From the IMG/VR virus record IMGVR_UViG_3300037042_007115: a stretch of 64,000 nucleotides of DNA, one strand, 5' to 3'. Source of the stretch: a virus. Lineage: Duplodnaviria > Heunggongvirae > Uroviricota > Caudoviricetes. The position numbers and the translations under genes were made by a program. A model generated the notes under the pieces. The model made no database searches. It saw only the letters and a program-made list of their open reading frames with translations, and had not been told where the DNA came from. Of this stretch, positions 5,166-60,509 are shown in pieces (position 1 is the stretch's first letter; every line of letters begins with the position of its first letter).

Positions 5166-5670
5166 GGCCCAAACTACCCAGTCTGGCTATGGGCTTAGGC
5201 ATATTAAGTATGGTAGGTTACTTACTTTTTCATGCCGGCCCACAGAGCGTGGGTGCGATGGTCCATCTGAGATTTATGAGCTCTCCTACTGTAGCGGGGG
5301 TTCCGAACCCATTTGGGTAGTCGAAGATAAATTATCCGCCTCCTTGGCCAGAGTTCATACTCCGGTGTGGTATGCTTGCTCATATGATGCCCCTATGAAT
5401 CCGTATAGTCCAGAAGAACTTGAGGTTGTTAAGGTAGAAATCCAAACTAATCTGGAAGAGCCCTCAGATATTCCAACAGAGCTTGAGTATTTAGCTCAGA
5501 GATATAATGACCCGCGACTCAGATCCTACCAGCCCCAACACTATGAGTATGTCTTATCAGAGATGGCAAAGTGGCCCCATAGGTATGAGAAGACCCACTA
5601 TTCCATAGGTGAACTCAAGATGCTGCGCTGGGACCAGGAAGCAGCAGATAAGGTGGACTATGACAAATAG
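5149..5670 (+). CDS. hypothetical protein
   Basis: 173-aa ORF. Confidence 0.4.
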   Translation: MTVKHKAQTTQSGYGLRHIKYGRLLTFSCRPTERGCDGPSEIYELSYCSGGSEPIWVVEDKLSASLARVHTPVWYACSYDAPMNPYSPEELEVVKVEIQTNLEEPSDIPTELEYLAQRYNDPRLRSYQPQHYEYVLSEMAKWPHRYEKTHYSIGELKMLRWDQEAADKVDYDK

Positions 5671-6178
5671 AATCCCACTAATCCGAGTTATTTCTGGGGG
5701 TCAGACCGGTGCTGATCAAGGCGGGCTTCAAGCAGCTTATGAGCTTAGCATTCCCACCGGGGGTTGGACAATTAAAAACTATGGTACAGAAGTAGGCCCA
5801 ATGCCTGAACTAGCCAAATACGGCTTACATTGTCTTGATACTAATAACTATGTGGCAAGAACTGCTCTTAATGCTCAGCAAGGTCACCTAACTATCTGGT
5901 TCGGCTCTATGGACTCAAGGGGATTTCAAGCTACTCGGAGGGAGTGTCAATTAGCTCATAAGCCTTTTGAGGTTATGACCAATAAAGCTAGGAGTATCAT
6001 AGAGACTAGAATCTTTTTATATTATAGGAATTGCAAAGACCCTGAGTTTATTTTGAATGTAGCCGGGAACCGTGAATCAAGCAGCCCGGGAATCCACCAG
6101 GAGGTTTATCAGTCTCTTCTGGCTGTTCTATCTTCTTTAGTTTTATTGCGGGATCAGGGCTGGGACACCATTAAGTAG
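5660..6178 (+). CDS. SLOG-superfamily protein (YpsA / molybdenum-cofactor-carrier-like Rossmann fold)
   Basis: N-terminal VISGGQTGADQGGLQAA matches the SGGQTG(A/V)D signature of the YpsA/MoCo-carrier SLOG family. Start is moved to the ATG at 5660, which overlaps the upstream stop. Confidence 0.5.
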   Translation: MTNRIPLIRVISGGQTGADQGGLQAAYELSIPTGGWTIKNYGTEVGPMPELAKYGLHCLDTNNYVARTALNAQQGHLTIWFGSMDSRGFQATRRECQLAHKPFEVMTNKARSIIETRIFLYYRNCKDPEFILNVAGNRESSSPGIHQEVYQSLLAVLSSLVLLRDQGWDTIK

Positions 6179-11989: not shown

Positions 11990-12028
11990 AGCTTTATAAG
12001 GTTTAGCGCAGCATTGTAGAGTATAACA
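11990..12028 (+). promoter_or_regulatory. promoter-family copy C (AGCTTTATAAGGTTTAGCGCAGCATTGTAGAGTATAACA)
   Basis: Near-identical to copies D and E over about 35 nt. Confidence 0.55.
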
Positions 12029-12039
12029 GGTGAAACTCT

Positions 12040-12594
12040 ATGGCGGACATAACCTTTCAAGAGCAGTCCCTATCCCGGTTGAAAAAACTTAAGGCATTGG
12101 CCGAAAGGGGAGTAGGCGGAGAGAAAGAGAATGCACAGATGCTCCTTGAGCGGCTTTGTGACAAATACCAAATCTCACCAGATCAGGTTGAATCTTCAGA
12201 TGAGAAGAAACTGCGTTGGTTCCGCTATAGGAAGGGACCAGCTCTTAGGAAGCTTCTTGCGCAATGCATATTTAAAACTCTTGGGAAGGATAGTAAAACA
12301 TTTGGACATGCACATACCAGAGCTAGGGAGTTTGCTGCAGAGTGTACAGCAGCGGAAGGAATAGAAATAGAGCTGGACTATGATTTCTATGCTGATGCTT
12401 TACAGAAAGAGATGACTAGAATGTTAGAGATGTTCATCCAGAAAAATAGCATCTTTCCACCTAACGTAGATTTAGACAGCAGTGGGAAAGAGATTTCAGA
12501 AGAGGATATGCTCCTATACCGGAGTATCAAGAAGCAGACTCGGGTATTACGGATTGGTAACTCCCCGGAGGAAGTTATAGAGGAGAGAGAATAA
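12040..12594 (+). CDS. DUF2786-like protein (behind promoter-family copy C)
   Basis: N-terminal LKKLKALAERGVGGEKENAQMLLERL resembles the DUF2786 signature (LxKLLALAExxxxExEAxxAxxKAxxL), common in phage and plasmid proteins. Confidence 0.5.
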   Translation: MADITFQEQSLSRLKKLKALAERGVGGEKENAQMLLERLCDKYQISPDQVESSDEKKLRWFRYRKGPALRKLLAQCIFKTLGKDSKTFGHAHTRAREFAAECTAAEGIEIELDYDFYADALQKEMTRMLEMFIQKNSIFPPNVDLDSSGKEISEEDMLLYRSIKKQTRVLRIGNSPEEVIEERE

Positions 12595-12783
12595 TGGGCC
12601 AGCAAGAAGCCATAGATGCATTACGTGAAAAGCGTGATGAATGCGACAGAGAAATTAGTCATGAGATGGATGAAAACTTCCAGAAAAGCTGGAAGGATAA
12701 GAAAGAAGCATATCAGTACGCTCTTAAAGTGCTAGGGGCTATTTGATACACTGGCCAAATCTTGGCCTTATTCTCTTTTAGTA

Positions 12784-12821
12784 AGCTTTATAAGGTTTAA
12801 CGCAGCATAGTTGTATGTAAC
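12784..12821 (+). promoter_or_regulatory. promoter-family copy D (AGCTTTATAAGGTTTAACGCAGCATAGTTGTATGTAAC)
   Basis: Identical to copy E over 38 nt. The ATG follows directly. Confidence 0.55.
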
Positions 12822-13133
12822 ATGACGTACTCAGAGAATGGAAGAGATCAGTGGGACCAGGCAAGCTTACTTGCTCGTAAGAATTCAGAGCAGTTAGTTT
12901 CCCTTAGGGGCCGCTGGGAAGATGAGCAGGAATATGAAAACTTTGATGAATACATCAAGGTTATTACAGCCCTGTTTCCGGGCTTTGAACTTTTTGCCTT
13001 CAAGAAGTCGAAGTTTAGCTTTAAGATCAAGATGCCAAGGCCGGTCCCGGATATGATTGTTCGGGTAGGTTTGACTCAAGTTACTTGGAAAATGGACATT
13101 ACCAAGGAACAGCGAGCTAGCATCAAGAAATAA
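12822..13133 (+). CDS. hypothetical protein (behind promoter-family copy D, near-leaderless)
   Basis: 103 aa. The ATG directly abuts the conserved ...GTATGTAAC element with no Shine-Dalgarno sequence. Confidence 0.45.
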   Translation: MTYSENGRDQWDQASLLARKNSEQLVSLRGRWEDEQEYENFDEYIKVITALFPGFELFAFKKSKFSFKIKMPRPVPDMIVRVGLTQVTWKMDITKEQRASIKK

Positions 13134-13155
13134 CTCAATCCCTCTTCTTTTAACT

Positions 13156-13194
13156 AGCTTTATAAGGTTTAACGCAGCATAGTTGTATGTAACA
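13156..13194 (+). promoter_or_regulatory. promoter-family copy E (AGCTTTATAAGGTTTAACGCAGCATAGTTGTATGTAACA)
   Basis: Identical to copy D. Followed by AGGTG and an ATG. Confidence 0.55.
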
Positions 13195-13204
13195 AGGTGT
13201 TGAA

Positions 13205-13327
13205 ATGACCGAGGACAGTATGAAAGTTTGGAACCTATGTTGGAACGAGCCCCCAGTAGGGCTGGCGATATACATAACCTGTATGGTCTTGATTGTAACG
13301 GGTTTAACTTTTTGTGGGGTCATTTAA
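13205..13327 (+). CDS. 40-aa hydrophobic peptide (behind promoter-family copy E)
   Basis: ATG 11 nt after AAGGTG. The peptide is MTEDSMKVWNLCWNEPPVGLAIYITCMVLIVTGLTFCGVI. It is not in the ORF track (under 60 aa). Confidence 0.35.
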   Translation: MTEDSMKVWNLCWNEPPVGLAIYITCMVLIVTGLTFCGVI

Positions 13328-13329
13328 TT

Positions 13330-14295
13330 ATGACTGAGGACAACCAAACCCCCGAAGTAGTTCAGGTATTAACCCCTGAGCAGCTTGAGCAGGAAAAGAA
13401 AGACTTGCTCAGCAAGTATTGCCACCTGAATTCCAGGATGACCTATCCAGATGCAGAGGATATTCTCAAGGCGCAGGGTATCGACTACATCCGGAAGCGT
13501 ATCAAGAAGTTGGAAAAACGCCAGGCAAAGCCTAAGGTGCCTAAGGACCTCTCAATCCTTATCAAGGGGATTGCCACAGCCTACTACTTGAATGACCAGC
13601 CGGATATGCTTGATTTCATTATGAAGGACCTGCAGTACCTCGGATTCACCGACATTACCTGTGCTCCCAAGAAAGAGGGCGACTATATATTCGAGCATAT
13701 CATCACCTTCTCAGGCCGGCACTCAGACCCCGACATCCAGGCTGTCTTCGCAAAGACTCCCCGGACAGATGTACTGTACCAGTACAAACTCGCCTATGGT
13801 AAACTGCTCAGCATACCTTTCGGCTCTACCGGTCAGAAAGAAGCAGACTGCAAGAATATCCAGGGGATCAGCAACCTGGCCTACAAGATCTCCGGCAATG
13901 GCTCAAAGGACCATCCAACCTATCTCCAGAAGACTCTCGGAATTACCGAGGCAAAAGACCATGTTCGGGATACCTACCACTGGACACCCATCTGGGAAGC
14001 AGAAGATGTAGCCATCCAGCAGGCACAGCGGGAGGCAGATGAGCTTAAAGAAGCAAAGCGGGTACAGCAAAGCCGGGCAACAGAGGAACTTGACCGAGCA
14101 GCAGCAGCCATTATCTCATACCTAAGCAAAGCTCAAAGGTATTATGATGAGTTCAATGAAGAGATGCCAGTACAGAAAGGTCACTCAGGCGGATATTCAG
14201 TTGGGGTACCTATGCTCACACTTACCTCCACTGGGACGGTTCTGCCAACTCTTGCCTTGACTCTCAACGGCCAAGAATGTATCCCAGAAGAATAA
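13330..14295 (+). CDS. hypothetical protein (about 321 aa)
   Basis: Track ORF is 13228..14295. Start is moved to the ATG at 13330, immediately after the stop of the 40-aa peptide. It also begins MTED. No recognisable domain. Confidence 0.45.
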   Translation: MTEDNQTPEVVQVLTPEQLEQEKKDLLSKYCHLNSRMTYPDAEDILKAQGIDYIRKRIKKLEKRQAKPKVPKDLSILIKGIATAYYLNDQPDMLDFIMKDLQYLGFTDITCAPKKEGDYIFEHIITFSGRHSDPDIQAVFAKTPRTDVLYQYKLAYGKLLSIPFGSTGQKEADCKNIQGISNLAYKISGNGSKDHPTYLQKTLGITEAKDHVRDTYHWTPIWEAEDVAIQQAQREADELKEAKRVQQSRATEELDRAAAAIISYLSKAQRYYDEFNEEMPVQKGHSGGYSVGVPMLTLTSTGTVLPTLALTLNGQECIPEE

Positions 14296-14598
14296 CTTTT
14301 TTCTTTCATTTATTTAGACTACCGTTTTTAGACCCCCTAAACTCCGCCTATGGGTTTAGGCCTTGTGTGGGTATCTTTTTCCCAATAAGGGGCATCTACG
14401 CACTTCAGCTGGTAGGTAAAGCTCAACCCAAAGATGAAACGGGACGTTTTAAAACTTTCATGGGATTTTGCTCTTGTGCCGCTAGTCTGACCTATTCAAA
14501 AACAGTGAGTTCCGGTTATAATATATAACGGAGAAATTCTCTCTCAGGATGCAAGTCTTTACTCGGAGGGTGCAAGTGTGTCCGTGGGGTATTGGTCC

Positions 14599-14647
14599 CC
14601 GTTTGGGTGGATAACAGGAACGATTGATACCGTTCTCCACCAAACGG
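14599..14647. terminator. long imperfect hairpin at the convergent junction of the + and - transcription blocks
   Basis: CCGTTTGGGTGGA...GGAACG-attgatac-CGTTC...TCCACCAAACGG, with T-rich tracts on both sides. Candidate bidirectional terminator. Confidence 0.35.
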
Positions 14648-14693
14648 AGAAAGCTCAAAAAAAGCTAAGGAAAAAGCTATCGCTCTTTCAATT

Positions 14694-14891
14694 TTAAAGG
14701 TCTGGTTTTTCTTGGGTAAATTTTTCTTCTTTGCGGGGTTTGGCTCCGCTTTTGTTTTTGGGGAAAGTAAAGCAGAGGAAAATCAGCGCCATTATAGCCC
14801 AAGGGATACTTAGCCACCAAGTCCATCTTGCGTATAGAACTGCATTAAAGACATAGAGAAATACTAAGCCAAGTATCTGATAGTCTATCAT
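14694..14891 (-). CDS. small membrane protein
   Basis: 65 aa, two hydrophobic helices. Confidence 0.3.
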   Translation of the reverse strand: MIDYQILGLVFLYVFNAVLYARWTWWLSIPWAIMALIFLCFTFPKNKSGAKPRKEEKFTQEKPDL

Positions 14892-14903
14892 ATTTTGGGT
14901 ACC

Positions 14904-15698
14904 TCAACCAAGTTGATCCCACTTTGACTTTTGGGGCGGCATTTCTTCGACTTTAACCACAGCCTCTGCGCTGGGCTCCTGATCATGGGGGATTTCAGCG
15001 ATATACTCTAAGTGGTCTTGTATAGCTGATTTGAATTGTTCTTCTTTTAGCTCTGATATTTCTATCTTCTTATTCTTAGTAGGTTTGGTTCTACGATTTG
15101 ATTCTTTTATTTCCTCGATGTTGCTATCACGGCTAAAGAAAATTATAAAGGCATTATATACAAGGATACTTGCTATTGCAAAGGTTCCCCACCCGCCCAA
15201 ACTGGGGAGCCATCCAAAGTATGCTCCTAACCAGTAGAGTAGAACTGAGAGCATTAAGGCAGTATTCATTCTTATTCCTATGGCCCAGAGCATTAAAATT
15301 AAAAATATGGGGACCATCATTGGAACCGCAGCAGAAGTTATAATGGGGGGCGATATTGGATATTCCGGAAAATGAATTATGCTAGACTCTGCTTGTAGGT
15401 GTGGTAAGGCTTCCGGTATAGTGGGTATTACTACTGCAGATTCAGTAGTATAATTATTAATTACTATTCCTTCACCGCCTCCGCCTCCGGGATAATACCC
15501 ACTAGCACCGCTACCCCCACCCCCAGCAACAAGAACTACTTGTGTAATCCTCGCAGAAGAGGTATTCCACATTACTACTGTCCTTGAATCATTAGAGGTA
15601 GTCCATTGGGTTTCTCCTAATACCGGAATAATCAGTAAGCTTAGACACAATATGATTACAGATACAACTATTTTTAGCTTCATTATAAGGACTCCCAA
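14904..15698 (-). CDS. secreted/membrane protein with Gly-rich ectodomain
   Basis: N-terminal signal or TM segment, VAGGGGSGASGYYPGGGGGEG, several TM helices, then a charged cytoplasmic tail. Confidence 0.5.
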   Translation of the reverse strand: MGVLIMKLKIVVSVIILCLSLLIIPVLGETQWTTSNDSRTVVMWNTSSARITQVVLVAGGGGSGASGYYPGGGGGEGIVINNYTTESAVVIPTIPEALPHLQAESSIIHFPEYPISPPIITSAAVPMMVPIFLILMLWAIGIRMNTALMLSVLLYWLGAYFGWLPSLGGWGTFAIASILVYNAFIIFFSRDSNIEEIKESNRRTKPTKNKKIEISELKEEQFKSAIQDHLEYIAEIPHDQEPSAEAVVKVEEMPPQKSKWDQLG

Positions 15699-16171
15699 CG
15701 ACTTTTATATTCTTTTTCTTCTGCTTTGGTAGGGTCAGATTTTTTACCCATAGCAATTTGTACATCTTCTGGGGGATTAAAAGTTTTACATTTTAATGAT
15801 TCTAGTTTTGTGTACCTAGACTTAGTTTCCGGTGGTATATTTGTATAGTGTTCGAAGCCCGACACTATATTTAACTCTCTGGTTGCAATCCGCCTCTCAT
15901 TTTTTCGTTGATTAAGTAGGGATTCTTGTTCATTAGGAATACAACTAGCAATTTTAACTAAGACTGCCATACCAGAAAGGATAAACACTGTTGGTAATAC
16001 TAGAAGCATAAGATTTACAATGGTTTGGATCAGGGGGTAACCCCCAAAAACTATTAAATTTTTTCCAAAGAAAATAGTGGTTATATAAGGTAATACTGTT
16101 ACTACTAATAATGACCAGAGTAGGCCTATTCCAAATAATAAACTATAAGCAGCTAGGCGTTCAAATCGCAT
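15683..16171 (-). CDS. membrane protein
   Basis: 162 aa with four hydrophobic helices; overlaps the downstream gene by 16 nt. Confidence 0.45.
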   Translation of the reverse strand: MRFERLAAYSLLFGIGLLWSLLVVTVLPYITTIFFGKNLIVFGGYPLIQTIVNLMLLVLPTVFILSGMAVLVKIASCIPNEQESLLNQRKNERRIATRELNIVSGFEHYTNIPPETKSRYTKLESLKCKTFNPPEDVQIAMGKKSDPTKAEEKEYKSRWESL

Positions 16172-16376
16172 AATTACTCTCCAGGGGTAATTTTAACATT
16201 ATTTGTCTTTTACAAGACTTATTCAAGTTAGGCCATAAGCAGTAAGTTTTTCTAATAGTGGGTGCCATCTATCCCTCCAATAATTTGATCTCTCAAACTC
16301 TATATCTAATTTGGGGTATTTAAGCTATTAAACCTAGCTCGAGTCACCTTTATAATATAATACGCGGTATACTTAT

Positions 16377-17027
16377 GTGATGACATCAGTTACCTACAAA
16401 AAAGCTGGTATTCACAATCTCGGGATAACCAAACTCATAAGTAATCCCGAACTCCTCTTCGTATACTTAGGGGTCCCCATGTCCCTAGTTTTTATTTATC
16501 TCCTCCCTACCAGTATAAAGACACAGTTCTTCACTCTTCACTTAGAGAGCCCCACTGCCTTCTCACTTCTGACCAGTGCTTTCAGCCATAACCTCTACTC
16601 ACACCTCTCCAATAACCTCGTTTACTATCTGATAGCTATTACTGCCATCCTTATTATGGAGACTAACATCAGGAGGTTTAGGTATGTAATGCTGTTATCA
16701 TTTACCTTAGTCCCGGTAATAACTTCAGCAGCCTCCTTTGTTTACTTCAGCGGCGGAGTATACACTCAGATGCTTGGGTTCTCATGCATAGGAACGGCGT
16801 TAATAGGTTATGTGGTTTATCTTATCGTAGAGAAAATGTACCAAGTAACACCAGTAGCACGCCCGCATGCCTTCTTACTTTGGATTAGTGCAGCAGCAAC
16901 AATCGTATTCTTTGTAGGACTCAGCTTAGGTGCAATATCCATCTATCAGGCCGGTCACCTTTCAAACGGAGTAGGGCACTTAGTAGGATACATGCTAGGT
17001 TTAATTCTAGCATATCTTTTTAGGTAA
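16377..17027 (+). CDS. rhomboid-family intramembrane serine protease
   Basis: Six or seven TM helices. FSHNLYSHLSNNL matches the GlpG H..H..N TM2 motif. LGFSCIGTALIG matches the G-x-S-G catalytic Ser motif. AGHLSNGVGHLVGYMLGL matches the TM6 catalytic His AHxxGxxxG. GTG start. A TATA-like TTTATAATATA sits ~25 nt upstream. Confidence 0.6.
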   Translation: MMTSVTYKKAGIHNLGITKLISNPELLFVYLGVPMSLVFIYLLPTSIKTQFFTLHLESPTAFSLLTSAFSHNLYSHLSNNLVYYLIAITAILIMETNIRRFRYVMLLSFTLVPVITSAASFVYFSGGVYTQMLGFSCIGTALIGYVVYLIVEKMYQVTPVARPHAFLLWISAAATIVFFVGLSLGAISIYQAGHLSNGVGHLVGYMLGLILAYLFR

Positions 17028-17037: not shown

Positions 17038-17283
17038 TTAACTTCTAAAGCGATGTGGCTGTAAGGCCTTTCCATCCTCATCATAGAAGTCATCATGGAT
17101 TAAGAACTCCCGGGGTGAGTGACCACTTTTTAGGAGATTCTTGTACTGCTTTTTAGTTAGGCTAAGATTTACTAACTGACCCAAGCAATTTTGACAAAGC
17201 TTGTAAGGCTTATCCGGGTTTTTGCTAGCATCACTTAATACCACCTGGTTCTCGTGATCTTTGCATGCTTGACAAAGTACCAT
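17038..17283 (-). CDS. zinc-ribbon protein (CQAC...CQNC)
   Basis: 81-aa ORF. Confidence 0.4.
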   Translation of the reverse strand: MVLCQACKDHENQVVLSDASKNPDKPYKLCQNCLGQLVNLSLTKKQYKNLLKSGHSPREFLIHDDFYDEDGKALQPHRFRS

Positions 17284-17588
17284 TAGTGCCTCATCTCTTT
17301 AGTCCAAACCATGAGTCGGTAGATAACTCCACCATTCTTACTATTTTTGTGTTTTACAATTTTAGTTTGGTAGCCTTTTCTTTCCCAGGTTAAAGCACGC
17401 TTTTCTAGTGCTGCTATAGTGATAGGCTGATGCTTACCATAGGCCTGCCAGAAGAGTTTATGTAGTTTTTTATCTTCTGCGGATACTGCGATTTCACCAG
17501 TATTTGCAAAGACCTTTTGTCCAAATTTAATGGCATATACCCCATCATCAAGAGTATCCTTCCCCATGCTTGCAGAAATATGTTCCAT
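17283..17588 (-). CDS. hypothetical protein
   Basis: 101-aa ORF. Confidence 0.4.
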   Translation of the reverse strand: MEHISASMGKDTLDDGVYAIKFGQKVFANTGEIAVSAEDKKLHKLFWQAYGKHQPITIAALEKRALTWERKGYQTKIVKHKNSKNGGVIYRLMVWTKEMRH

Positions 17589-17608
17589 GTAAACTCCAAA
17601 AAGAGAAG

Positions 17609-18473: not shown

Positions 18474-18482
18474 CGTAAATAC

Positions 18483-23262: not shown

Positions 23263-23859
23263 ATGGACTGGTCCGTCTTAAAGCCAGAAAAGAGTACCTT
23301 AAAGTCTTTATCTTGTATGGTTAGGGTTACCAGAGACTTAATCTGGGAAGAGTTCGGACCGGAACTAGCACAACATACTCAAATTTCTTTTAGTAGGCGG
23401 ATGTATTTTACTCTTGGTCGCTGTTGGCCTGAAGAGAAGCGTATTTCCTTCAATCTGGCCTGGGTCGTACTAAACCGTAAGAACCCGGGATGCTTAAAGT
23501 CTTTGTTAGTACATGAGGTGGCACATCTACAGGACCCCACACACGGGATTATCTTTGAGTCTTTCTGTCTAAAGTATGGGGTGAATCCTATAGATATTCC
23601 CGGGTCAATAAGCCTTCCACCGGTAGCTTGGCTTTTATGTGTTACTTGCGGGGATGATCAGGGATTTCAATTTAGTACTCGTTTAACTTCTGAGGAAGTA
23701 CAGAAGAAATTTAGTGGTACTCTTTGTAGGACTTGTGGGAGTGAGGTCGAATACCGAGAACTATCCGATACCGGTCTTAGGCGAGTCTCTAGTAAAATTC
23801 GGAAACTCCGGCTTTCAGAGACGCGCACTTGGGAAAGTTTAAAGAGGAGTACATGCTAA
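23263..23859 (+). CDS. SprT/DUF45-like zinc metallohydrolase (paralog of 21878..22237)
   Basis: LLVHEVAHLQDPTHGIIFESF (HExxH...H), with C-terminal CxxC...CxxC zinc ribbons. Confidence 0.55.
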   Translation: MDWSVLKPEKSTLKSLSCMVRVTRDLIWEEFGPELAQHTQISFSRRMYFTLGRCWPEEKRISFNLAWVVLNRKNPGCLKSLLVHEVAHLQDPTHGIIFESFCLKYGVNPIDIPGSISLPPVAWLLCVTCGDDQGFQFSTRLTSEEVQKKFSGTLCRTCGSEVEYRELSDTGLRRVSSKIRKLRLSETRTWESLKRSTC

Positions 23860-27387: not shown

Positions 27388-28059
27388 ATGCGTTATATCT
27401 TTTTGTTTCTTTTGTTTATATCTGTTCTTTTTCCCCTAGCCTCTGCAAGTATTTATGTAATGCAGGGAGATACTCTTTACTGGGGCGATAATGCTGATTT
27501 AACCGGAGTCTATGGTTGGGAATGTACAGTTGCTTGGTGGAAAGGTGGAATTACAACTGCACAATGGCCAGATAGAACTGAAGAGGTTTGTTATCAGGCA
27601 CACAATATTGCTATTACACCAGAAAGATTCCCAGCAGGTACCTGGTATAAATGGAATGGTAAAGTAGAGGGGGCTGGAAATGATATAGCTTTCCATGTTG
27701 TGGGGGTATTACGCCCTATAGTCATTACACCTACCCCCAATACTACAGTAAATGTTACTAGTAATACAACTTTAGTCACCCGAGTACCCACAACTATAAT
27801 TACTAAGGCCCTAATAGCGCCTATTGCTCCCACACTTACAGCCCTACCCACAAGAATAGCTACACCTGTGCCTACTACCCAGGCTTCTTTTATACCGCAG
27901 ATTCCAACTCTTGCGCGTGTCCCCGTTGCTACTCCTACAGAAGAGGTTCCAGCAGAAGGAATTATTCCTCCAACTAAGTACCCGCCAATTCCAGTACTGA
28001 TTGTTGGCTTCTTTGGCATAGGATTAGTTGCATATTGGTGGGTACGCGGCAATTTTTAG
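27388..28059 (+). CDS. secreted Thr/Pro-rich glycoprotein-like protein with C-terminal TM anchor (PGF-CTERM-like)
   Basis: Signal peptide MRYIFLFLLFISVLFPLASA. Globular domain. Long Thr/Pro/Val-rich stalk. C-terminal hydrophobic helix PVLIVGFFGIGLVAYWWVRGNF. Confidence 0.55.
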   Translation: MRYIFLFLLFISVLFPLASASIYVMQGDTLYWGDNADLTGVYGWECTVAWWKGGITTAQWPDRTEEVCYQAHNIAITPERFPAGTWYKWNGKVEGAGNDIAFHVVGVLRPIVITPTPNTTVNVTSNTTLVTRVPTTIITKALIAPIAPTLTALPTRIATPVPTTQASFIPQIPTLARVPVATPTEEVPAEGIIPPTKYPPIPVLIVGFFGIGLVAYWWVRGNF

Positions 28060-28415: not shown

Positions 28416-28498
28416 GGGAAGATTGTCGAACGGCTAAAGACATGTGGCCCAAGATCACATCTCGCAGGAGTTTGGGAGTTCAAATCTCCCTCTTCCCA
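28416..28498 (+). tRNA. tRNA-Leu(CAA)-like, class II with long variable arm
   Basis: Acceptor GGGAAGA/TCTTCCC pairs 7/7. D arm contains GG. Anticodon stem TGTGG/TCACA with loop CCCAAGA (anticodon CAA; position 33 is C, not U). Variable arm is 14 nt with a CTC/GAG stem. T arm is GGGAG-TTCAAAT-CTCCC. Discriminator is A. Confidence 0.55.
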
Positions 28499-31082: not shown

Positions 31083-32873
31083 TTATTTTACCTGGGCTTC
31101 AGGTTTATTGCCCGGCATTTCTGCTAGAGTTTTTGCCATGAAGGCGTTGAACAGGTTGGCACTCTGTCCTTCTCCGTTACCCCCCTGGACGAGGAAGTTG
31201 GGAGTAATCTGAACATGGCCATCTGCTACCTTCTTCATCACTTCAATCATAGTGATAGAAGAGGAACCCAGGACCTGCTTTTGTGCCTCATAAGCCGCCG
31301 CTGCACCTTCACCTACTTTCTGGGCGGCATATGCATCACCATCTGCTTTAGCGATTGTTGCATCACGGATACCGGCTGCTTCTTTCCTAGCTGCTTCGGC
31401 TTTGTCAAAGGCAATGTCGATTGACAACTTTGCAGCAATGATATCTGTCTGTTTGTCTGCCCTTGCTGTTTTTTCTGCTACTTCAATACGGCTCTCTTGG
31501 GCTTTGGCTTCTTCACCATACTGCTGTTGCTGCTGGACCGCAATCTCTTTCTTGGTCTGGGTTTCGAGTAGAGCTGCTGGAGTCTGGATATATGCAATTA
31601 ACAGGCCCTGAACTTCTACATGGTACCGGCTGAATTCTTTACGGGCTGCTGCAAGTGCCTGTTCCTGAAGAAGTGTCCTACTCCTGACGAATTCAATTGC
31701 CTGCTTTTCACCTGCTGCATTCCTGAATGAGGAATCAATCAATGGATGAGCAACCTGTTCAATCAAGTTAGCCACTGTACCAAACCTAGCGATGACTGCT
31801 GATGCATTAGCCGGGGGAATACGAATGATAAGCCGGACATCAACTTCTAGACCAAAACCATCCTGAGAGGTAACTTTTAACTGGCTGAACTTATAGAACT
31901 CAGTAGATTTCTCTCCGGATGCTTTTCCTGTTTGGCTTTGGGTTGCAATATCAGTTTCCTTATTACCTGAGCTTGCTGCCCAATCAATAGTTACTGCACT
32001 GGTTGGTACAAGTACCGCTTTATAGCCCCTGGTATTCAAGTTATATTTACCTGCGGTTACCGGAGACTTCAAAATACCCCGCTGGGTTTCATCAGTGATA
32101 AGAACTACTTCCACATCCTCTACATTAGGCTGTTGTAGGCTTGGGGCCAGACTGATTCCTGGTGGAATAGCTCTCTTCTCTAGCTCTTTCCCGACACTAG
32201 AAATGATGACTGCTACATAACCCGGCGGAACTTGGGCGACATTCTCTGATTGTACCTCAAACAGTAATGGGTTAATGTAATATTCCCCGGGCTGCAGAGT
32301 TTCCAGTTGAATACCCCTATGTCCTCCTGAGACAATAAAAGCATTCCCATCTGCAAAGTGCTGAGTATTTGCAGCAGGAGCAGGAGCAATCATATATTCA
32401 GCAGACAGAGGAATACCATCCTGAGCCGTAAGAATTCCTATCTTGTCACCGGGGATAACTACCGCGGGTGAAACTTTCACTGTAAACATAGCCCGGTTGA
32501 TCCTATGCGTTCCTGGGAGCAATATCCCAACTTGTGGGCCCTTGCATCCCCCGGCCTGTACAAAGGCTTTCGCATCCTGGAACCCATTGCACTCTACCAC
32601 GTCTCCCAGCAACCTGCCTGCCGGAATAGGCTTTCCTTCAATAGACCCCACGACACCTACTTGCCCGGGTGGAATCTCAACTACCGATGCCTTACGCACG
32701 GAAAAGACAATCGGCATCCTCCAGTAGAGCCCAGGCACAAGTGTGTCAGCCTGGACGCCGACTTCACCGTGTAATGCAATAATTTGCCCGGGAGACATTG
32801 TAGCACCAAACATATTCTTGGTGACAAGGCCAACTTCGTTATCTCGTATGAGATTAAATCCAAAGAATGACAT
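31083..32873 (-). CDS. SPFH/band-7 (flotillin-like) protein
   Basis: 596 aa. N-terminal hydrophobic segment. SPFH core. Long Ala/Glu/Lys/Gln coiled-coil flotillin-type region. Confidence 0.7.
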   Translation of the reverse strand: MSFFGFNLIRDNEVGLVTKNMFGATMSPGQIIALHGEVGVQADTLVPGLYWRMPIVFSVRKASVVEIPPGQVGVVGSIEGKPIPAGRLLGDVVECNGFQDAKAFVQAGGCKGPQVGILLPGTHRINRAMFTVKVSPAVVIPGDKIGILTAQDGIPLSAEYMIAPAPAANTQHFADGNAFIVSGGHRGIQLETLQPGEYYINPLLFEVQSENVAQVPPGYVAVIISSVGKELEKRAIPPGISLAPSLQQPNVEDVEVVLITDETQRGILKSPVTAGKYNLNTRGYKAVLVPTSAVTIDWAASSGNKETDIATQSQTGKASGEKSTEFYKFSQLKVTSQDGFGLEVDVRLIIRIPPANASAVIARFGTVANLIEQVAHPLIDSSFRNAAGEKQAIEFVRSRTLLQEQALAAARKEFSRYHVEVQGLLIAYIQTPAALLETQTKKEIAVQQQQQYGEEAKAQESRIEVAEKTARADKQTDIIAAKLSIDIAFDKAEAARKEAAGIRDATIAKADGDAYAAQKVGEGAAAAYEAQKQVLGSSSITMIEVMKKVADGHVQITPNFLVQGGNGEGQSANLFNAFMAKTLAEMPGNKPEAQVK

Positions 32874-32958: not shown

Positions 32959-33582
32959 TTAGGTTTGGTGCAGGATTAAGTCGAGATCTTGTAGGACTTT
33001 ATCAAATACTTGAACGTGAGTAGAATTTTCGGTGCTAATTTGGATTACTATGTTAGTGAAAGCACATTCCCGGTAGAACTTTTGGTAGTTAGCTTCTACT
33101 TTTGCTAAGAAATTAGCCTTCTCATAATTATCAATTGTAGTCCTAGAGGCTGCTCGGATACGGGCTTCTGATGTTTCTGGCTTAGCTGTGAGGTGGATAA
33201 CTACATCAGGAGGCAGGATCCATGAGCCATTATAGATATTCCAGAGCCAGATATCCGGGTGCTCCATGTATCCTTCAAGCGTAGCAGTCTGATAGGCAAG
33301 ATGTGAGTGTAGATACCTATCAGTGATAACTATTTTTCCTTTAGCTAAGGCTGGTTTTACTACATTCTCAATATGGTGCCTATGGTCAGCTGCGAATAGC
33401 AAAGCAGAAAGAACCTCATCATTCTGGTTAATGCACTGTTTAATGAGGTTTCTGTACCCGGTATCTGAAGGCTCCCTGCTAAAGACTGCTTGGTTACCCC
33501 TTAAAGCATCTCTCAATAGCTCTACTAAGCCGGATTTGCCTGTTCCATCTACTCCTTCAATTGCAATAATTATTGAACTCAT
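32959..33582 (-). CDS. tmk: thymidylate (dNMP) kinase
   Basis: IAIEGVDGTGKSGL P-loop and overall dTMP-kinase layout, including an R-rich lid region. Confidence 0.7.
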   Translation of the reverse strand: MSSIIIAIEGVDGTGKSGLVELLRDALRGNQAVFSREPSDTGYRNLIKQCINQNDEVLSALLFAADHRHHIENVVKPALAKGKIVITDRYLHSHLAYQTATLEGYMEHPDIWLWNIYNGSWILPPDVVIHLTAKPETSEARIRAASRTTIDNYEKANFLAKVEANYQKFYRECAFTNIVIQISTENSTHVQVFDKVLQDLDLILHQT

Positions 33583-48767: not shown

Positions 48768-49427
48768 TTAAAGGTCACTTCTGACTGAATTTTTCCCGAA
48801 GAAAGATTGTATGTAGACCTCCCCCGGCCCAGTGAGGTGTGTGGTGAATAAACCTCTTCCGCTGAAGAGGATATTGTTAACTGTTTTTACGAATTTAACA
48901 TCTAGTGTGATAGTGGTACTGAAAGCTAGTAAGCGACTGCTAGTTACTTCCAACTCTTCCCCGGGGCCTAATATTTTCTTATGAAGTTCCCCCCAGCCGT
49001 GGAGCACTACTTTACCGTTTCCAGATAGTCTCTCTAGGACCAAACCTTCACCACTGAATACTGCCATCCTAATTCGCTTCATAAAAGCTATGTCAAGGTC
49101 AACCCCGGGTTCAGCACATAGGTAAGCCGCCCTGTCACATAGGTAGTTGTGGTCCTTGTCTATTTCAAGAATCAGCATATTACCACAGACCCTATCAGCA
49201 AGGGAGATTACTTGCCCATCTTCTAATGCCGTGAAGGTGGTCATATATAGCGAATCACCTCCGGCAAGCCTTCTTACTGCTTTAAGCATTCCCCCATAGA
49301 TTTCAGTTTCCATCTCTACCTCTTTGGTCATAGAGAGGAGAGCATTGGTTTGCGCTATTAGTTGTTCACCCTTGTTTAGCTCAATTGAAACAATGGGGTA
49401 TAAGTTTCCATCAATAATATACTTCAT
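48768..49427 (-). CDS. AIM24/TIGR00266-family protein
   Basis: 219 aa, Gly-rich beta-strand repeats typical of the family (GEGLVLERLSGNGKVVLHGWGEL...LLAF). Confidence 0.45.
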   Translation of the reverse strand: MKYIIDGNLYPIVSIELNKGEQLIAQTNALLSMTKEVEMETEIYGGMLKAVRRLAGGDSLYMTTFTALEDGQVISLADRVCGNMLILEIDKDHNYLCDRAAYLCAEPGVDLDIAFMKRIRMAVFSGEGLVLERLSGNGKVVLHGWGELHKKILGPGEELEVTSSRLLAFSTTITLDVKFVKTVNNILFSGRGLFTTHLTGPGEVYIQSFFGKNSVRSDL

Positions 49428-51546: not shown

Positions 51547-54500
51547 TCATTCACTCCCCCAATCCCCGAAGTGTGTATCTGTTACAATGGGTACTGTAAG
51601 ATTCACCCCCAACTTGGCCAATAGTGGCGGACACTCTATGAGCTTCTTTATCTCGGGTAGAAGTTTATCTGCTATATCATCACGTATTTCCATAAGGATA
51701 GCATCATGAATAGTTCCTACGATGTTTAATACATCCTTTCCATAGGTCGTACTTAGTGCAACCACAGCCATCATCGTCATATCACTTGCAAATCCCTGAA
51801 CAGGCGCGTTTATTGAGTTGCGTTCTGCCTGTGCACGTACTCCCTCATCGGGTGACATAATCTCCGGCAGGTGTCTAATACGCCCATCAAGGCATTTTAC
51901 CTGTCCATACTGCCTTACCATCACTTTTTGCCGCTGGTGCCACTTTGGAAGCTCAGAATAGGTTTCAAAGAACCTCTGTCTAAATGCGGTAGCTTCCTCT
52001 ATTGTGAGGTCCGTTTCATATTTATCCCGGGCGTATTCCTGGAACTTCTTCTCCCGCATGCCGTAAAGGAACCCAAAATTACAGTTTCCCTGTATTCCCA
52101 CTTTATTGTCTCTTCTTATAACGATATTTTCTGCCTGGACTTGTACACAATATGCCATATGACTGCCGGGTATCTTTTGGAAGCTTAGGTGTGTTCTCGA
52201 GTCGAGTCGTCCGCCGGGCCTATAGGTAATTTTGTACCCCTCAGTTCTTTTCTTATCTCTAGGGGGCATAACATATAGTACTGCTCGTGTCCCAGAAGTA
52301 CAGGCCATAGCTTGCATTATATCCGCACTTTGTCGAACATGTGTAGTAAATTTTGTATATTTTTGAGCAAATTTTTCACTTGACCAAGAGTCCCAGTAAG
52401 CTGCTTCATCGAGATAAACTATTGCCGGGATGTCTGTTAGGCAGGACCAGGAGAGATTTTTATTATCATCAAGATACGGCTTTATCATCCCCATAATTTT
52501 CGGTGAGTTCATTTCAAAGATAGTTGCTCCATCAGCCCTTGTTCTACGGGTATAACTTACCCCATAGGCATCTAGAAGTTGTTTACATCTGTCTATTTTG
52601 TGCTGCTTTTTAAACCCAAATCTAAGGCGGGTGTGGTCTTTAAATGACCCATCAGCTGCGATCATAGCTAAGATTCGAGTTTCAGTTTCTGTTAGTTTAT
52701 ACTCCGTTCTTTTAAGGAGCCCAGCAGAGAATAGATAAGTATTTTGAGGAACTGAATCTGCGCGCCTCTTCTCTACACGTTCCGTGTTCCTATTGAAATA
52801 CAAAATTTCGTGATCTGCTGTTACTAATAGATCATTATTTCTATCTATGAAACTATACAGCTCTCTATTATTTTGGGATTGAAAAGCTATAGGCTTAGTA
52901 AACGATATTTCTTGCGTTTCTTGGAAATACTGCGCTACTTCATCTGTGCCATTATATTTATCAAATCTTACCCAACCGGCTTTTGTGAGTATTTCAGTAT
53001 CCCCTGAGAAGCATGCCTTGGCTTTCTTTCGCTCATCCTTAGTAATTAGCTCAGGGGGTTTTCCAGTGATAAGGGAAGCTGTCTTCCGGTGTATGTCGCC
53101 CTTCGGGTCATTGAAGATACCTATCATTGTTGGGTCCCCGCTTACCATAGCTGCTATCCTAAGCTCAACTTGGGAGTAATCACACTCTAATAGTCTCCAT
53201 CCTGGTGGGGCGCCTATAAGAGTTCTAATCTTTTTGTCACGTGGAACCTGCTGGAGGTTAGGGTCACTACATGAATTATGAACACAGAGCTCATTTGCTA
53301 TAAAATTATGCGTATCTTCTACCTCTATATCATACACAGGGAAGATTCCCGGTAGTTTCTCCACATAAGTAATCATATGATTCTGGGGCTTGGGCTTGGC
53401 GTTATCTGGTAGTTTGGCCAGTGTTCGGGTCCTACCATAAACTACTCTAGCTTCCTTAGTTTTACTTACAGTTTCCCCAGTAAAATGTAAATAGTTATAA
53501 TCACCGCGTGACCTATGCAGGGCCATAACATGCTCCCCATGATGATATCGTTTTCTCCATTTGATATATTTTCCCCCCGCTAGATCTTCTACTTTGATAT
53601 AACTTCCGGAGGTTAACCGAATTGGGTGGTTCCCTGTAGCATCCAGAAAACCCTCAGTATGCCCCCCTTGCCCCACCCAATGCACTCTATAACAGGGCTT
53701 GCTGCCCGTAAGCCCAGAACTCTTGACTTTTTTCAAAGTTAACTTTAATTCATCATCAAACGAATATACTAAGTCTCCCGTCTTTATATCTTGGATGGGC
53801 CTAGTTCCACCCGGTATCATGACTTCTGTACCTTCTCTTAAGCAGAGTCTGCCAGTAACGGTCCCGTGCAGCTTAAAGTTAGGATGTAGTCTTTCGTGCG
53901 GACCTAAGAATTTCTTCCACCCCTCAATAAAGCTCGATACCTGCTTAGCCAGCTCCCTATGTTTGAGTAATAAATCAATTCCTTCGTGTTGACCTTTCAG
54001 TCGTTGAAGAATACCTTCTGCAGTAGAGGGTGCACCAGACTTAGTAAGTTCTAATGGTACCAACTTCCAATCCTCGAATAAGATCTTACCAACCTGCTTA
54101 GGACTGTTCCAGTTTACCCCAGGAGCCATAGCCTCTAGTTTATCATGTACCTCAGCGAGTTCAGCTTTAAGGACAATTTCCAGTGCGGCTAGACGCTCTT
54201 TATGGACGAATACGCCATGACACTCAATATCTTCAAAGGCTTCAAACGCCGGCATAATAAGGAACTTAAAAAGCTTAAGGAGATCAGCATTCTTCATTAA
54301 CTGACCACGCTGCATTTTATATAACCTGAGAGTGTACAAAACATCATAGCCACAATACTCATACATCTTCTCTAGGTCTGGGCCTTGTCCTCTTTTATCT
54401 TCAGATGAGATATCATAAGCTGGAGCATTAAGATGAACCTTAGCCAGATACTTTAGGCCACATGGCTCATTCTCATTCAAGATATGGGCTGCCATCATGG

Positions 54501-55419
54501 TATCAAAAGTAATTGGGAACCTAATATCATAGTGTACCCGGAGCCACCTATTATCAAACTTCCCATTCTGAGTGACAATCTTCTTGCCTTTCATCATAAG
54601 TAAGATTTCTTGGAGGCCTTCCTTCATGCCACCTTTAGTCTTGAAGATAAGATTCTCACCAGACATAGGCAGCACCCACTGTCTCTCCTGTGTCAGCTCA
54701 TTATCCGCATATCTGGAGATGCCCAAACAGTTAATATCTGCGCCTTCTTCTCTCGGGTCTAAACAAGTGGTTTCTAAGTCAAAGCCAATTACTGGGCAGT
54801 CTTTGAGGTCATGCAGCATTTCTTTGAACTGCTCTACATTTCTTATGATAGTAAGGTTTAAGCCGGTACTAGGCTTCCAGGTACCATTGATTATTTCAAA
54901 GAACTTTTTCATATCTGATTTAAGCGGGGCTTCTTTCTTTGGATCCCGGAGTGCTGCAGCTGGATGAAATGCAGGTAAGTATGTTATACCCTCTTTTTCA
55001 ATAGGAACCCCATGAATATCCATAATCCCGCTGGCTCCTTTGCCTAAGACGCCTTTTAAGGCTACCGCACCCATAACAATGATGAATTTAGGTTTAACCT
55101 CATCTATTTCTCTTTGAAGATGCACCTTACATGCTTTAATTTCAGCTTGTGTAGGAGATTCATTTTCAGGTGCAGAACAGTGAATTAAATGAGTCAAATA
55201 AAGGGTATCTCTACTTACTCCATTCTCCATCAAAATTCGGTCTAGGAGTCGCCCGGCATTTCCGGGGAAGGGTTTTGTAAGCTCTGATTTATAATTAGTG
55301 GGTGCCTCCCCTATTATCATAACATTACAGGGGGTAGGGCCCTGGCCCATAACGCATACTAACGGGGAACTTGCATACCGGGTGCAAAGTTTGCAACTTG
55401 AATCTCCAAAAACAGGCAT
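51547..55419 (-). CDS. family-A DNA polymerase with N-terminal family-4 UDG-like domain and 3'-5' exonuclease domain, interrupted by two inteins
   Basis: UDG-like region: CKLC Fe-S Cys pair, GEAPT (GE[AG]PG-like motif A), F.GNAGRLL, HPAAALR (HPSxxLR-like motif B). Exonuclease motif I IGFDLETT. PolA pre-motif A TGRL//SCSDPNLQQVP. Motif A CDYSQVELRIAA. Motif B RKKAKA//CNFGFLYG. Motif C IHDAIL (HDA rather than HDE). Confidence 0.9.
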   Translation of the reverse strand: MPVFGDSSCKLCTRYASSPLVCVMGQGPTPCNVMIIGEAPTNYKSELTKPFPGNAGRLLDRILMENGVSRDTLYLTHLIHCSAPENESPTQAEIKACKVHLQREIDEVKPKFIIVMGAVALKGVLGKGASGIMDIHGVPIEKEGITYLPAFHPAAALRDPKKEAPLKSDMKKFFEIINGTWKPSTGLNLTIIRNVEQFKEMLHDLKDCPVIGFDLETTCLDPREEGADINCLGISRYADNELTQERQWVLPMSGENLIFKTKGGMKEGLQEILLMMKGKKIVTQNGKFDNRWLRVHYDIRFPITFDTMMAAHILNENEPCGLKYLAKVHLNAPAYDISSEDKRGQGPDLEKMYEYCGYDVLYTLRLYKMQRGQLMKNADLLKLFKFLIMPAFEAFEDIECHGVFVHKERLAALEIVLKAELAEVHDKLEAMAPGVNWNSPKQVGKILFEDWKLVPLELTKSGAPSTAEGILQRLKGQHEGIDLLLKHRELAKQVSSFIEGWKKFLGPHERLHPNFKLHGTVTGRLCLREGTEVMIPGGTRPIQDIKTGDLVYSFDDELKLTLKKVKSSGLTGSKPCYRVHWVGQGGHTEGFLDATGNHPIRLTSGSYIKVEDLAGGKYIKWRKRYHHGEHVMALHRSRGDYNYLHFTGETVSKTKEARVVYGRTRTLAKLPDNAKPKPQNHMITYVEKLPGIFPVYDIEVEDTHNFIANELCVHNSCSDPNLQQVPRDKKIRTLIGAPPGWRLLECDYSQVELRIAAMVSGDPTMIGIFNDPKGDIHRKTASLITGKPPELITKDERKKAKACFSGDTEILTKAGWVRFDKYNGTDEVAQYFQETQEISFTKPIAFQSQNNRELYSFIDRNNDLLVTADHEILYFNRNTERVEKRRADSVPQNTYLFSAGLLKRTEYKLTETETRILAMIAADGSFKDHTRLRFGFKKQHKIDRCKQLLDAYGVSYTRRTRADGATIFEMNSPKIMGMIKPYLDDNKNLSWSCLTDIPAIVYLDEAAYWDSWSSEKFAQKYTKFTTHVRQSADIMQAMACTSGTRAVLYVMPPRDKKRTEGYKITYRPGGRLDSRTHLSFQKIPGSHMAYCVQVQAENIVIRRDNKVGIQGNCNFGFLYGMREKKFQEYARDKYETDLTIEEATAFRQRFFETYSELPKWHQRQKVMVRQYGQVKCLDGRIRHLPEIMSPDEGVRAQAERNSINAPVQGFASDMTMMAVVALSTTYGKDVLNIVGTIHDAILMEIRDDIADKLLPEIKKLIECPPLLAKLGVNLTVPIVTDTHFGDWGSE
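52084..53013 (-). mobile_element. intein 2 (310 aa) with LAGLIDADG-type homing-endonuclease domain, inserted in PolA motif B
   Basis: Residues 803-1112: N-terminal CFSGDTEILTKAG (block A), ILAMIAADGSF (LAGLIDADG), C-terminal ...VGIQGN, with +1 Cys. Removing it restores RKKAKACNFGFLYG. Codon-level check: the Cys-1 codon TGC lies at 53011..53013 on the - strand. Confidence 0.7.
53275..53844 (-). mobile_element. mini-intein 1 (190 aa) inserted within the PolA TGRL|SS motif
   Basis: Residues 526-715: N-terminal CLREGTEVMIPGG (block A), GFLDATGNHPI (block B, T..H), C-terminal VYDIEVEDTHNFIANELCVHN, with +1 Ser. No endonuclease domain. Removing it restores TGRLSCSDPNLQQVP. Confidence 0.75.
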
Positions 55420-60074: not shown

Positions 60075-60509
60075 TTATTCCGGTAAAGGTGCCTTTTTAG
60101 TTCTTTTAATAAATTCTACAAGTTTAGGATGAAGTTTTCTAAGGACTACTAAAAACTGTGCGTCAGACTTATAGTAATGTACAGGTTTATAGGAGAGCGT
60201 AGTGTACTCGGGTCTCATCTTAAAATACTCCAGGGCCCCCATAGGTAGTCCTTTCTGGGTCGGAGGTATATAGTCCCAAATAAGGGTAGCATATTCCCCG
60301 GAGCTTCCTGGAGTGGGCTCAGCAAAGAACCTGATCTCATAGACGCTGCGACCAAACTCAGCATAAAAATCTCTTGATGGGTAGAAGCCTAAGAGGTCGC
60401 CCTCCAAGTGTGTCTGTCGAGAGTCTAGGAATTTTTGGAACCTATCCCAGATAACTTGAGATTTATGGTTTAGGTTCAAAAATAGTAAATTATTGTCTAT
60501 TTCGAGCAT
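60075..60509 (-). CDS. hypothetical protein
   Basis: 144-aa ORF. Confidence 0.4.
   Translation of the reverse strand: MLEIDNNLLFLNLNHKSQVIWDRFQKFLDSRQTHLEGDLLGFYPSRDFYAEFGRSVYEIRFFAEPTPGSSGEYATLIWDYIPPTQKGLPMGALEYFKMRPEYTTLSYKPVHYYKSDAQFLVVLRKLHPKLVEFIKRTKKAPLPE

Follow-up and report, generated by a model that had tools for sequence, protein, structure and literature searches.

The window, that is, the whole stretch of 64,000 nucleotides that was analysed, contains in a crude gene map about 140 ORFs, mostly small and densely packed. One of them, on the + strand at 16377..17027, is listed as an open reading frame of 216 amino acids when read from GTG 16377, and its product carries the motifs of rhomboid intramembrane proteases. 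The features of the locus are given below, and residue numbers are counted throughout from GTG 16377.

16347..16355, + strand: promoter-like box of TATA type, CCTTTATAA, seen in the sequence and conserved in relatives
16380..17027, + strand: rhomboid-family coding sequence, 215 amino acids from ATG 16380 (with the alternative GTG 16377, 216 amino acids)
16587..16616, + strand: TM2 motif H71-x4-H76-x3-N80, placed by the hhalign register to GlpG and by family conservation
16659..16661, + strand: E95, cytoplasmic end of TM2; it pairs with GlpG E166 and is Glu in 63 of 71 family sequences
16776..16811, + strand: TM4 motif G134-F-S136-C-I-G-T-A-L-I-G144-Y145, aligned with GlpG G199/S201/G209/Y210
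16965..17000, + strand: TM6 motif N197-G-V-G200-H201-L-V-G204-Y-M-L-G208, aligned with GlpG H254/G257/G261

Gene, strand setting and upstream box

A public protein of 215 amino acids, P0001, present in JGI and Logan data on a contig of 178,173 bp, is identical to the window protein and starts at ATG 16380; its JGI name is 'membrane associated rhomboid family serine protease'. Translation probably begins at this ATG rather than at GTG 16377, because in the alignment of five distinct relatives the ATG is constant, in contrast to the preceding codon, which can be GTG, TTG or ATG. The preliminary description placed the gene on an isolated + strand island inside a − strand block, and the gene map agrees with it. 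A + strand block ends at 14528, three − strand genes occupy 14694..16171, the rhomboid gene stands alone on the + strand, and a second − strand block covers 17038 to 22680. Between the rhomboid gene and the divergently oriented 15683..16171 there is a spacer of 205 bp, and the convergent 17038..17283 is only 10 bp away. A run of five T residues lies at 17017..17021, immediately 5′ of the rhomboid stop codon.

The two adjacent genes at 14904..16171 had been described as encoding Gly-rich membrane or secreted proteins. This was right for the product of 14904..15698, which contains a Gly-rich stretch and gives a borderline match to PF21722 (23.2 bits, against a cut-off of 24.3); the product of 15683..16171 is instead a protein of about three TM segments for which no family match was obtained. 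These membrane proteins were considered as conserved partners or substrates of the rhomboid and rejected as partners, no homologues being detectable at the same position in relatives. An AAA ATPase gene adjoins the rhomboid gene in two of the relatives, L004 and L016, and is missing from the window. Hence, since the homologues of one set are missing in the relatives and the ATPase is missing here, the immediate neighbours are not conserved partners.

A TATA-like element about 25 nt upstream of the start had also been noticed, and it proved to be real and conserved. Counted from the last A of its TTTATA (16354), the A of ATG 16380 follows after 26 nt; the box CCTTTATA is invariant among relatives at this distance, and TTTATAATATA is found at 16349..16359. 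In the upstream alignment, the five distinct relatives all have CTTTATA at an unchanged distance from the ATG, whereas the flanking bases and those further upstream differ. The box resembles CTTTATAAGGTTTARCGCAG, three copies of which lie upstream of the + strand genes at 11992, 12786 and 13158; with weaker copies included there are five matches, a number reached by none of 100 shuffles. The motif CCTTTAWWW is over-represented in the zone 20-65 nt ahead of gene starts, where 6 of its 17 copies lie although 5% would be expected (P = 1.2e-4); these six include those of the polymerase, SPFH and exonuclease genes. A sigma-70 scan of the + strand upstream of the rhomboid gene found no −35/−10 site. 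A −10-like TATACT is located 7 nt before the ATG, and TATAAT is contained in the box.

An archaeal TATA box at this spacing sets the transcription start at or beside the start codon, generating a leaderless mRNA. By analogy with such promoters, the strictly fixed distance between box and ATG argues for an archaeal reading, and the element fits a TATA promoter from which a leaderless mRNA would be made. A bacterial leaderless promoter may alternatively operate through the TATACT that precedes the ATG. In the best overall explanation, which we regard as highly probable as a whole, the rhomboid gene would be a monocistronic unit transcribed from the conserved CCTTTATAA box.

Membership in the rhomboid family

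Recognition by the Rhomboid profile had been proposed as a check of the assignment, and with the window protein alone the profile did not recover it. The single sequence gave no Rhomboid match in Pfam even at E ≤ 10, no match in NCBIfam and none to PDB sequences; both family profiles, searched against the PDB sequences, also retrieved no rhomboid (GlpG was not reached). This failure was not taken as a refutation, because orthologues with 47-60% identity pass PF01694 and the window copy differs from them at positions scored by the profile, for instance in reading GFSC instead of GFSG. The orthologues P0002 to P0006 are full-length, with E values from 1e-52 to 1e-78. Four of them (P0002, P0004, P0005 and P0006) score 31-32 bits on PF01694, whose cut-off is 22.6, and P0007 scores 22.7. 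Overall, full-length orthologues at 43-60% identity occur in other samples, of which at least five are independent. The membership of the window protein in the Rhomboid family is thus one of transitive homology via its orthologues.

An exhaustive profile search extended the wider family to 766 cluster representatives, and a search of a set of 5.8 billion proteins added only P0157 and P0148 amid very many candidates. Seventy-one sequences taken from the 766 representatives made up the family alignment, and 30 of them match Pfam Rhomboid. When the profile of this alignment was compared with Escherichia coli GlpG by hhalign (E 5.5e-5, probability 66%), residues H71, H76, N80, E95, G134, S136, G144, Y145, H201, G204 and G208 were paired, respectively, with H145, H150, N154, E166, G199, S201, G209, Y210, H254, G257 and G261 of GlpG. 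The seven-sequence viral clade alone gives a weak match to GlpG (E 0.015, probability 2.9%) in an unchanged register. With the 71-sequence alignment as input, AlphaFold produced a model with a pLDDT of 92 and a pTM of 0.88, in which a six-TM core has the rhomboid fold. The top 37 Foldseek matches of the model in the PDB are all GlpG or iRhom, with moderate TM-scores (0.5-0.66), and beyond them the E value jumps to about 2. The early assignment as a rhomboid is in this way supported by the Pfam matches of the orthologues, by the family profile against GlpG and by fold matches to rhomboids only. As judged from homology and from the predicted fold, the window protein is a divergent but genuine member of the family with the full catalytic apparatus.

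The comparison with known systems defines the position of the protein further. GlpG of E. coli and Haemophilus influenzae (PF01694, MEROPS S54) is only 13-20% identical to it. Unlike GlpG, the window protein has no N-terminal cytoplasmic domain and no WR in loop L1, reads GxSC instead of GxSG and is encoded by a virus-like carrier; on its own it falls below the threshold of PF01694. Rhombosortases are small six-TM rhomboids of proteobacteria that process C-terminal membrane-anchor signals. Their model, TIGR03902, is the best NCBIfam model for the wider family and is matched by 45 of the 71 members. A rhombosortase identity was nevertheless rejected, as the cut-off of 84 bits is far above the 18-31 bits scored by family members, and for the window protein no match was obtained. 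[quoted passage not shown] Rho1 and Rho2 are products of cellular genes, whereas the window protein is a member of a distinct subfamily of short proteins.

Rhomboids had been stated to be very rarely encoded by viruses, which agrees with the content of BFVD, where seven viral proteins of rhomboid fold were found. Three come from uncultured tailed phages, three from eukaryotic giant viruses and one is unnamed, none belonging to an archaeal virus; examples are A0A8S5Q3G3 of Siphoviridae sp. ctLqe90, A0A076FGD9 of Aureococcus anophagefferens virus, and proteins of a Megaviridae sample and of Yasminevirus. These proteins have the rhomboid fold in common with the window protein (E 9e-5 to 1.5e-2), but they are at most 17% identical to it and share neither its clade nor its synteny. 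A weak match (26 bits, E 1e-5) aligns residues 18-214 with profile positions 21-211 of the 217 of phrog_16931, a family of unassigned function that is also matched by P0002, P0005 and P0014; tblastn found no member of phrog_16931 in the deposited phage collection. A literature search on virus-encoded rhomboids retrieved no relevant paper.

Conservation, carrier element and host

The same syntenic position and the same lone + orientation of the rhomboid gene are found in relatives from independent samples: L002 (ENA, 101,656 bp), L004/L005 (Logan, 34 kb), L016 (from an activated-sludge metagenome) and L017/L018 (JGI). The position is conserved in at least five related virus-like contig lineages. 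In the syntenic relatives the rhomboid is 43-57% identical to the window copy, a range like that of the neighbouring conserved genes. As part of the overall explanation that we favour, and with the same high probability, a lineage of large virus-like elements, represented by contigs of 101-178 kb, would have kept the rhomboid as one of its core genes.

The seven virus-associated sequences group as a single clade in a neighbour-joining tree, inside a subfamily that is otherwise archaeal; each is at least 41% identical to the window protein, and cellular members of the family reach at most 31%. This topology suggests a single capture of the gene from a divergent archaeal rhomboid subfamily. The wider family was located in genomes at six loci, all archaeal (two Micrarchaeota, one Bathyarchaeota, two Methanolobus and one Nanoarchaeia), by a scan with patterns derived from cellular long forms only. 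The contexts of the cellular homologues, at the P0007 locus and at a Methanolobus locus, consist of housekeeping genes and were uninformative. The family as a whole, with its approximately 766 cluster representatives, is a divergent archaeal rhomboid subfamily devoid of the WR motif and only partly detected by standard profiles.

The window encodes a replication and recombination module with a fusion of UDG, exonuclease and PolA, an SNF2 helicase, a PD-(D/E)XK exonuclease and a Sak4-like ATPase; PolA is a family A DNA polymerase interrupted by intein sequences. It also carries genes of nucleotide metabolism (dNMP kinase, dCMP deaminase, a ThyA-like protein and dUTPase). A tRNA was predicted by ARAGORN; the search of the window against Rfam gave no match, including none for this tRNA. 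Three large unannotated ORFs of the window have no relatives in the PDB. At 27388..28059 a protein is encoded with a signal peptide, a match to the first 80 positions of Pfam DUF3821 (28.5 bits, cut-off 23), a Thr/Pro-rich linker containing NxT sequons and a C-terminal membrane anchor. A search with this DUF3821 protein retrieved viral relatives only, and no direct link to a host. The G+C content of the window is about 42%, close to that of Methanospirillum. DUF3821 corresponds to domains D1-D2 of the Methanospirillum hungatei S-layer protein and has been reported as exclusive to Methanomicrobiales (PMC11641113).

The closest phage matches of the helicase and the polymerase are to bacterial phages (of Thermoanaerobacterium, Faecalibacterium, Pseudomonas and Clostridium) at 33-44% identity. 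They would be accounted for if the rhomboid belonged to a bacteriophage and the upstream box were a bacterial or phage-specific promoter, an explanation that also draws on the TATAAT inside the box, on the TATACT before the ATG and on the origin of the few prokaryotic-virus rhomboid folds of BFVD, all in uncultured tailed phages. However, the phage collection searched is mostly of bacterial phages and poor in archaeal viruses, so its best matches are biased to bacteria. The wider rhomboid subfamily, moreover, was located by the pattern scan only in archaeal genomes, at six loci, the window has a gene with a domain reported only in Methanomicrobiales, no −35/−10 pair precedes the gene on its strand, and the strictly fixed spacing of the box fits a leaderless start positioned by a TATA element. 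A bacteriophage origin is on balance rather unlikely. Because the rhomboid subfamily has an archaeal distribution, boxes of TATA type occur, sigma-70 sites are missing upstream of the gene and a DUF3821 gene is present, the host is very probably archaeal; its placement within Methanomicrobiales is conceivable, at somewhat below even chances.

The 64-kb window yielded no recognisable capsid, portal or terminase gene. When 50,697 deposited phage genomes were searched by tblastn with the window protein and with P0005, no true match appeared, and scans of IMG/VR found no relative of the rhomboid clade. These results would be anticipated if the gene were not encoded by a virus and resided in a plasmid, in another non-viral mobile element or in a cellular genomic island. 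The search for virion genes, however, covered 36% of the 178 kb contig. Strong matches link the replication module to phage families (phrog_17 at 1e-136 for the UDG-exonuclease-PolA fusion, phrog_62 at 4e-121 for the SNF2 helicase, and also phrog_1218 and phrog_124), and the dense packing of about 140 small ORFs, the polymerase with its intein and the nucleotide-metabolism genes, which are typical of large lytic tailed viruses, also speak against a non-viral element. We consider a non-viral carrier to have a low probability and the element to be, very probably, a virus. The elements carrying the rhomboid gene are probably head-tailed viruses of methanogenic archaea, possibly of Methanomicrobiales.

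Predicted catalytic residues, membrane topology and putative substrates

The three rhomboid hallmarks first reported for the protein, in TM2, TM4 and TM6, are all present in the sequence. Residues H76 and N80 of TM2 align with GlpG H150 and N154, the oxyanion-stabilising pair, and H71 aligns with GlpG H145; in the 71-sequence alignment these three residues are kept in 70, 68 and 69 sequences, respectively. The G134-F-S136-C stretch of TM4 is encoded at 16776..16787, with the codon of the predicted catalytic Ser136 at 16782..16784, and both G134 and S136 are kept in all 71 sequences. The position that follows, 137, is Gly in 34 and Ala in 30 of the 71 sequences and Thr, Ser or Asp in six, Cys occurring only in the window copy. 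In TM6 the predicted catalytic His201 (codon 16977..16979) forms the A/G-H signature with G200, which aligns with GlpG A253, and is followed by a GxxxG packing motif. Among the ungapped sequences, H201 is conserved in 66 of 66, G204 in 63 of 66 and G208 in 63 of 64.

A hydropathy scan delimits six hydrophobic segments (residues 26-44, 76-94, 104-122, 133-151, 166-184 and 197-215), and the helices predicted in the AlphaFold model at 74-94, 136-157 and 198-214 agree with them. Segments 2, 4 and 6 carry the motifs at their N-terminal ends, all on the same, outer, side. A misalignment of Ser or His relative to the TM helices had been named as grounds for doubting the assignment; both residues are correctly placed relative to the predicted helices. 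The N-terminus is rich in Lys and the TM2-TM3 loop in Arg, and the motif-bearing ends would for this reason lie outside. GlpG has an N-in/C-in topology, and the same arrangement is predicted for the window protein.

Departures from the rhomboid canon comprise the missing WR motif, the Cys that follows Ser136 and the lack of any extra domain. The positions of GlpG W136-R137 in loop L1 are occupied by F62-S63, by I-L in close orthologues and by variable residues across the family. Active rhomboids display the GxSx and A/G-H signatures, GxxxG serves as a structural packing motif, and WR is present in about 80% of the members (PMC12615303). The WR motif is hence characteristic but not obligatory.

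The protein could have the rhomboid fold without performing proteolysis, acting as a pseudoprotease of the iRhom or Derlin kind, whose role would be to scaffold, to thin the membrane or to bind clients. Known pseudoproteases have lost Ser and/or His. The near-invariance of Ser136 and His201, both present in the window protein, led to the rejection of the iRhom/Derlin class, and together with that of G134, H76 and N80 it is hard to explain without catalysis. In addition, position 137 varies in the family, so there is no obvious reason why Cys in the window copy should be disabling. We therefore regard a pseudoprotease as very unlikely, and from the conservation of these residues we infer protease activity for the window protein. 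A chance hydrophobic ORF mimicking rhomboid motifs, for which the negative single-sequence profile searches could be invoked, is contradicted by the full-length orthologues in at least five independent samples, the 766 cluster representatives and the confident model, and is effectively refuted by the Pfam matches of the orthologues, the alignment of the family profile to GlpG and fold matches that are exclusively rhomboid.

Within the highly probable overall explanation, the protein would be a compact intramembrane serine protease that spans the membrane six times and has its N- and C-terminus on the cytoplasmic side. Its catalytic dyad would consist of Ser136 and His201, located at the outer ends of TM4 and TM6, respectively. 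By analogy with GlpG, Ser136 activated by His201 would attack a peptide bond of a TM segment entering laterally between TM2 and TM5, His76 and Asn80 of TM2 would stabilise the oxyanion, and G204 and G208 of TM6 would pack against TM4. Because the active site would face outwards, in the outer leaflet, the substrates are expected to be single-pass proteins, cut within or just above the anchor near its outer boundary with release of the ectodomain. Cutting of surface proteins in this manner would remodel the cell surface during infection.

Few candidate single-pass proteins are encoded in the window. Our best guess for the substrate is a type I membrane glycoprotein of the envelope, either the S-layer-like protein of the virus (27388..28059) or surface proteins of the host. 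The former is the most attractive candidate in the window, host surface proteins being equally possible. Cleavage of the Thr/Pro-rich protein at 27388 or of a host S-layer protein had already been suggested as a candidate role in the preliminary description, and the 27388 protein proved to have an S-layer-protein domain and a C-terminal TM anchor. It is a type I protein whose anchor consists of PP[IL]P, a Gly-rich hydrophobic stretch and WWV[RQ]G, a pattern conserved in two relatives. Rhomboid substrates often contain helix-destabilising Pro or Gly residues; in the anchor of the 27388 protein (PPIP, the hydrophobic stretch and WWVRG) helix-destabilising Pro and Gly are present, and a Gly-Gly dipeptide is absent.

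A 596-amino-acid SPFH/flotillin-like protein is encoded in the window at 31083..32873. Membrane proteases are known to work together with SPFH scaffolds and with AAA proteases. The rhomboid YqgP partners with FtsH (PMC7231995). By analogy, a functional link of the SPFH protein, and of the AAA ATPase of the relatives, with the rhomboid can be proposed as a speculation. A more elaborate scenario, to which we give little credence, is that of a rhomboid dedicated to envelope remodelling. The enzyme would clip the anchor of the S-layer mimic, or those of S-layer, pilus or receptor proteins of the host, in a proteolytic microdomain organised by the SPFH protein and, in the relatives, by the adjacent AAA ATPase, opening or re-dressing the surface of the methanogen for egress or for superinfection exclusion. 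If true, this would be the first host-surface manipulation based on an intramembrane protease described for an archaeal virus, and an archaeal rhomboid would have its natural substrate identified for the first time.

Few membrane proteases are as widespread as rhomboids. The natural substrates of those of archaea are unknown (PMC11985538), and a broad review of the superfamily from 2025 mentions neither viruses nor archaea (PMC12615303). The protein described here is a probably viral rhomboid in an unusual carrier, a gene type that is rare but known and that had already been named rhomboid by JGI, and it defines a divergent archaeal subfamily without WR that standard profiles detect poorly. 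Current understanding is not overturned by it. However, since membrane proteins are few in the viral proteome and an S-layer-like type I glycoprotein is one of them, a core-gene rhomboid in probable methanogen viruses offers a small, tractable system for finding a substrate and a role, and the presence of the S-layer mimic in the same genome makes the substrate hunt attractive. Moreover, if envelope proteins are its targets, the enzyme would be relevant to the ways in which viruses get across the archaeal S-layer or alter it.

Surroundings of the rhomboid gene and its promoter-like box

The cumulative GC skew peaks at window 12000..16000, where the + strand gene block gives way to the - strand block, and it is at this boundary that the rhomboid gene is located. 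Two overlapping genes for membrane proteins lie beside it in divergent orientation:

14904..15698, - strand, membrane protein
15683..16171, - strand, membrane protein

One of the two products carries a signal or anchor segment, a Gly-rich stretch (borderline match to PF21722) and further transmembrane segments, and the other has about three transmembrane segments. For neither protein was a homologue detectable at the same position in the relatives; the slot is thus variable.

A promoter-like element some 45 nt long, AGTnAGCTTTATAAGGTTTARCGCAGCATAG, recurs upstream of + strand genes:

11992..12011, + strand, copy of the repeat
12786..12805, + strand, copy of the repeat
13158..13177, + strand, copy of the repeat
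near 3715, + strand, weaker copy
at 16348, + strand, weaker copy

The TATA-like box preceding the rhomboid gene is a diverged copy of this repeat.

Genes for an SPFH protein and an AAA ATPase

A flotillin-like SPFH/Band 7 protein of 596 amino acids, without a predicted transmembrane segment, is encoded at 31083..32873 on the - strand, and a CCTTTAAAT box of its own lies 51 nt before the gene. Since SPFH proteins often scaffold membrane proteases, a link between this protein and the rhomboid is conceivable. In two related contigs, L004 and L016, an AAA ATPase of 566-570 amino acids (PF00004 plus lid) is encoded directly upstream of the rhomboid gene and divergently from it; the window contains no counterpart.

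L004 6025..7725, - strand, AAA ATPase
L016 8186..9898, - strand, AAA ATPase

Replication, nucleotide metabolism and other genes

The family A DNA polymerase (51547..55419, - strand, 1290 amino acids) carries, as fused parts, an N-terminal uracil-DNA glycosylase and a 3'-5' exonuclease. Intein sequences (Intein_splicing and Hint matches) break it up, and a second inserted segment matches PhoH/RNR-like PHROGs. A set of - strand genes at 32959..33582, 60497..61066, 61545..62228 and 62648..63418, comprising a thymidylate/dNMP kinase, a dCMP deaminase, a thymidylate-synthase-like protein and a dUTPase_2, is compatible with dTTP supply or DNA base modification. Other features are:

5609..6178, + strand, circularly permuted YpsA SLOG-domain protein
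23263..23859, + strand, SprT/YgjP-like metallopeptidase, kept in all relatives
28416..28498, + strand, tRNA-Leu(CAA) called by ARAGORN
48768..49427, - strand, AIM24-family protein (186 bits)

The tRNA is divergent or doubtful, because the Rfam tRNA model reaches its gathering score nowhere in the window.

An S-layer-like protein and the host

A candidate type I membrane glycoprotein of 223 amino acids is encoded at 27388..28059 on the + strand. Its features are a signal peptide, a match to the first 80 positions of DUF3821, a linker rich in Thr and Pro that bears NxT sequons, and a membrane anchor at the C-terminus that is conserved. In the S-layer protein of Methanospirillum hungatei, DUF3821 makes up domains D1-D2; this domain family has been reported from Methanomicrobiales only (PMC11641113). 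For these reasons the protein looks like a virus-encoded mimic of an S-layer protein, and it hints at the host.
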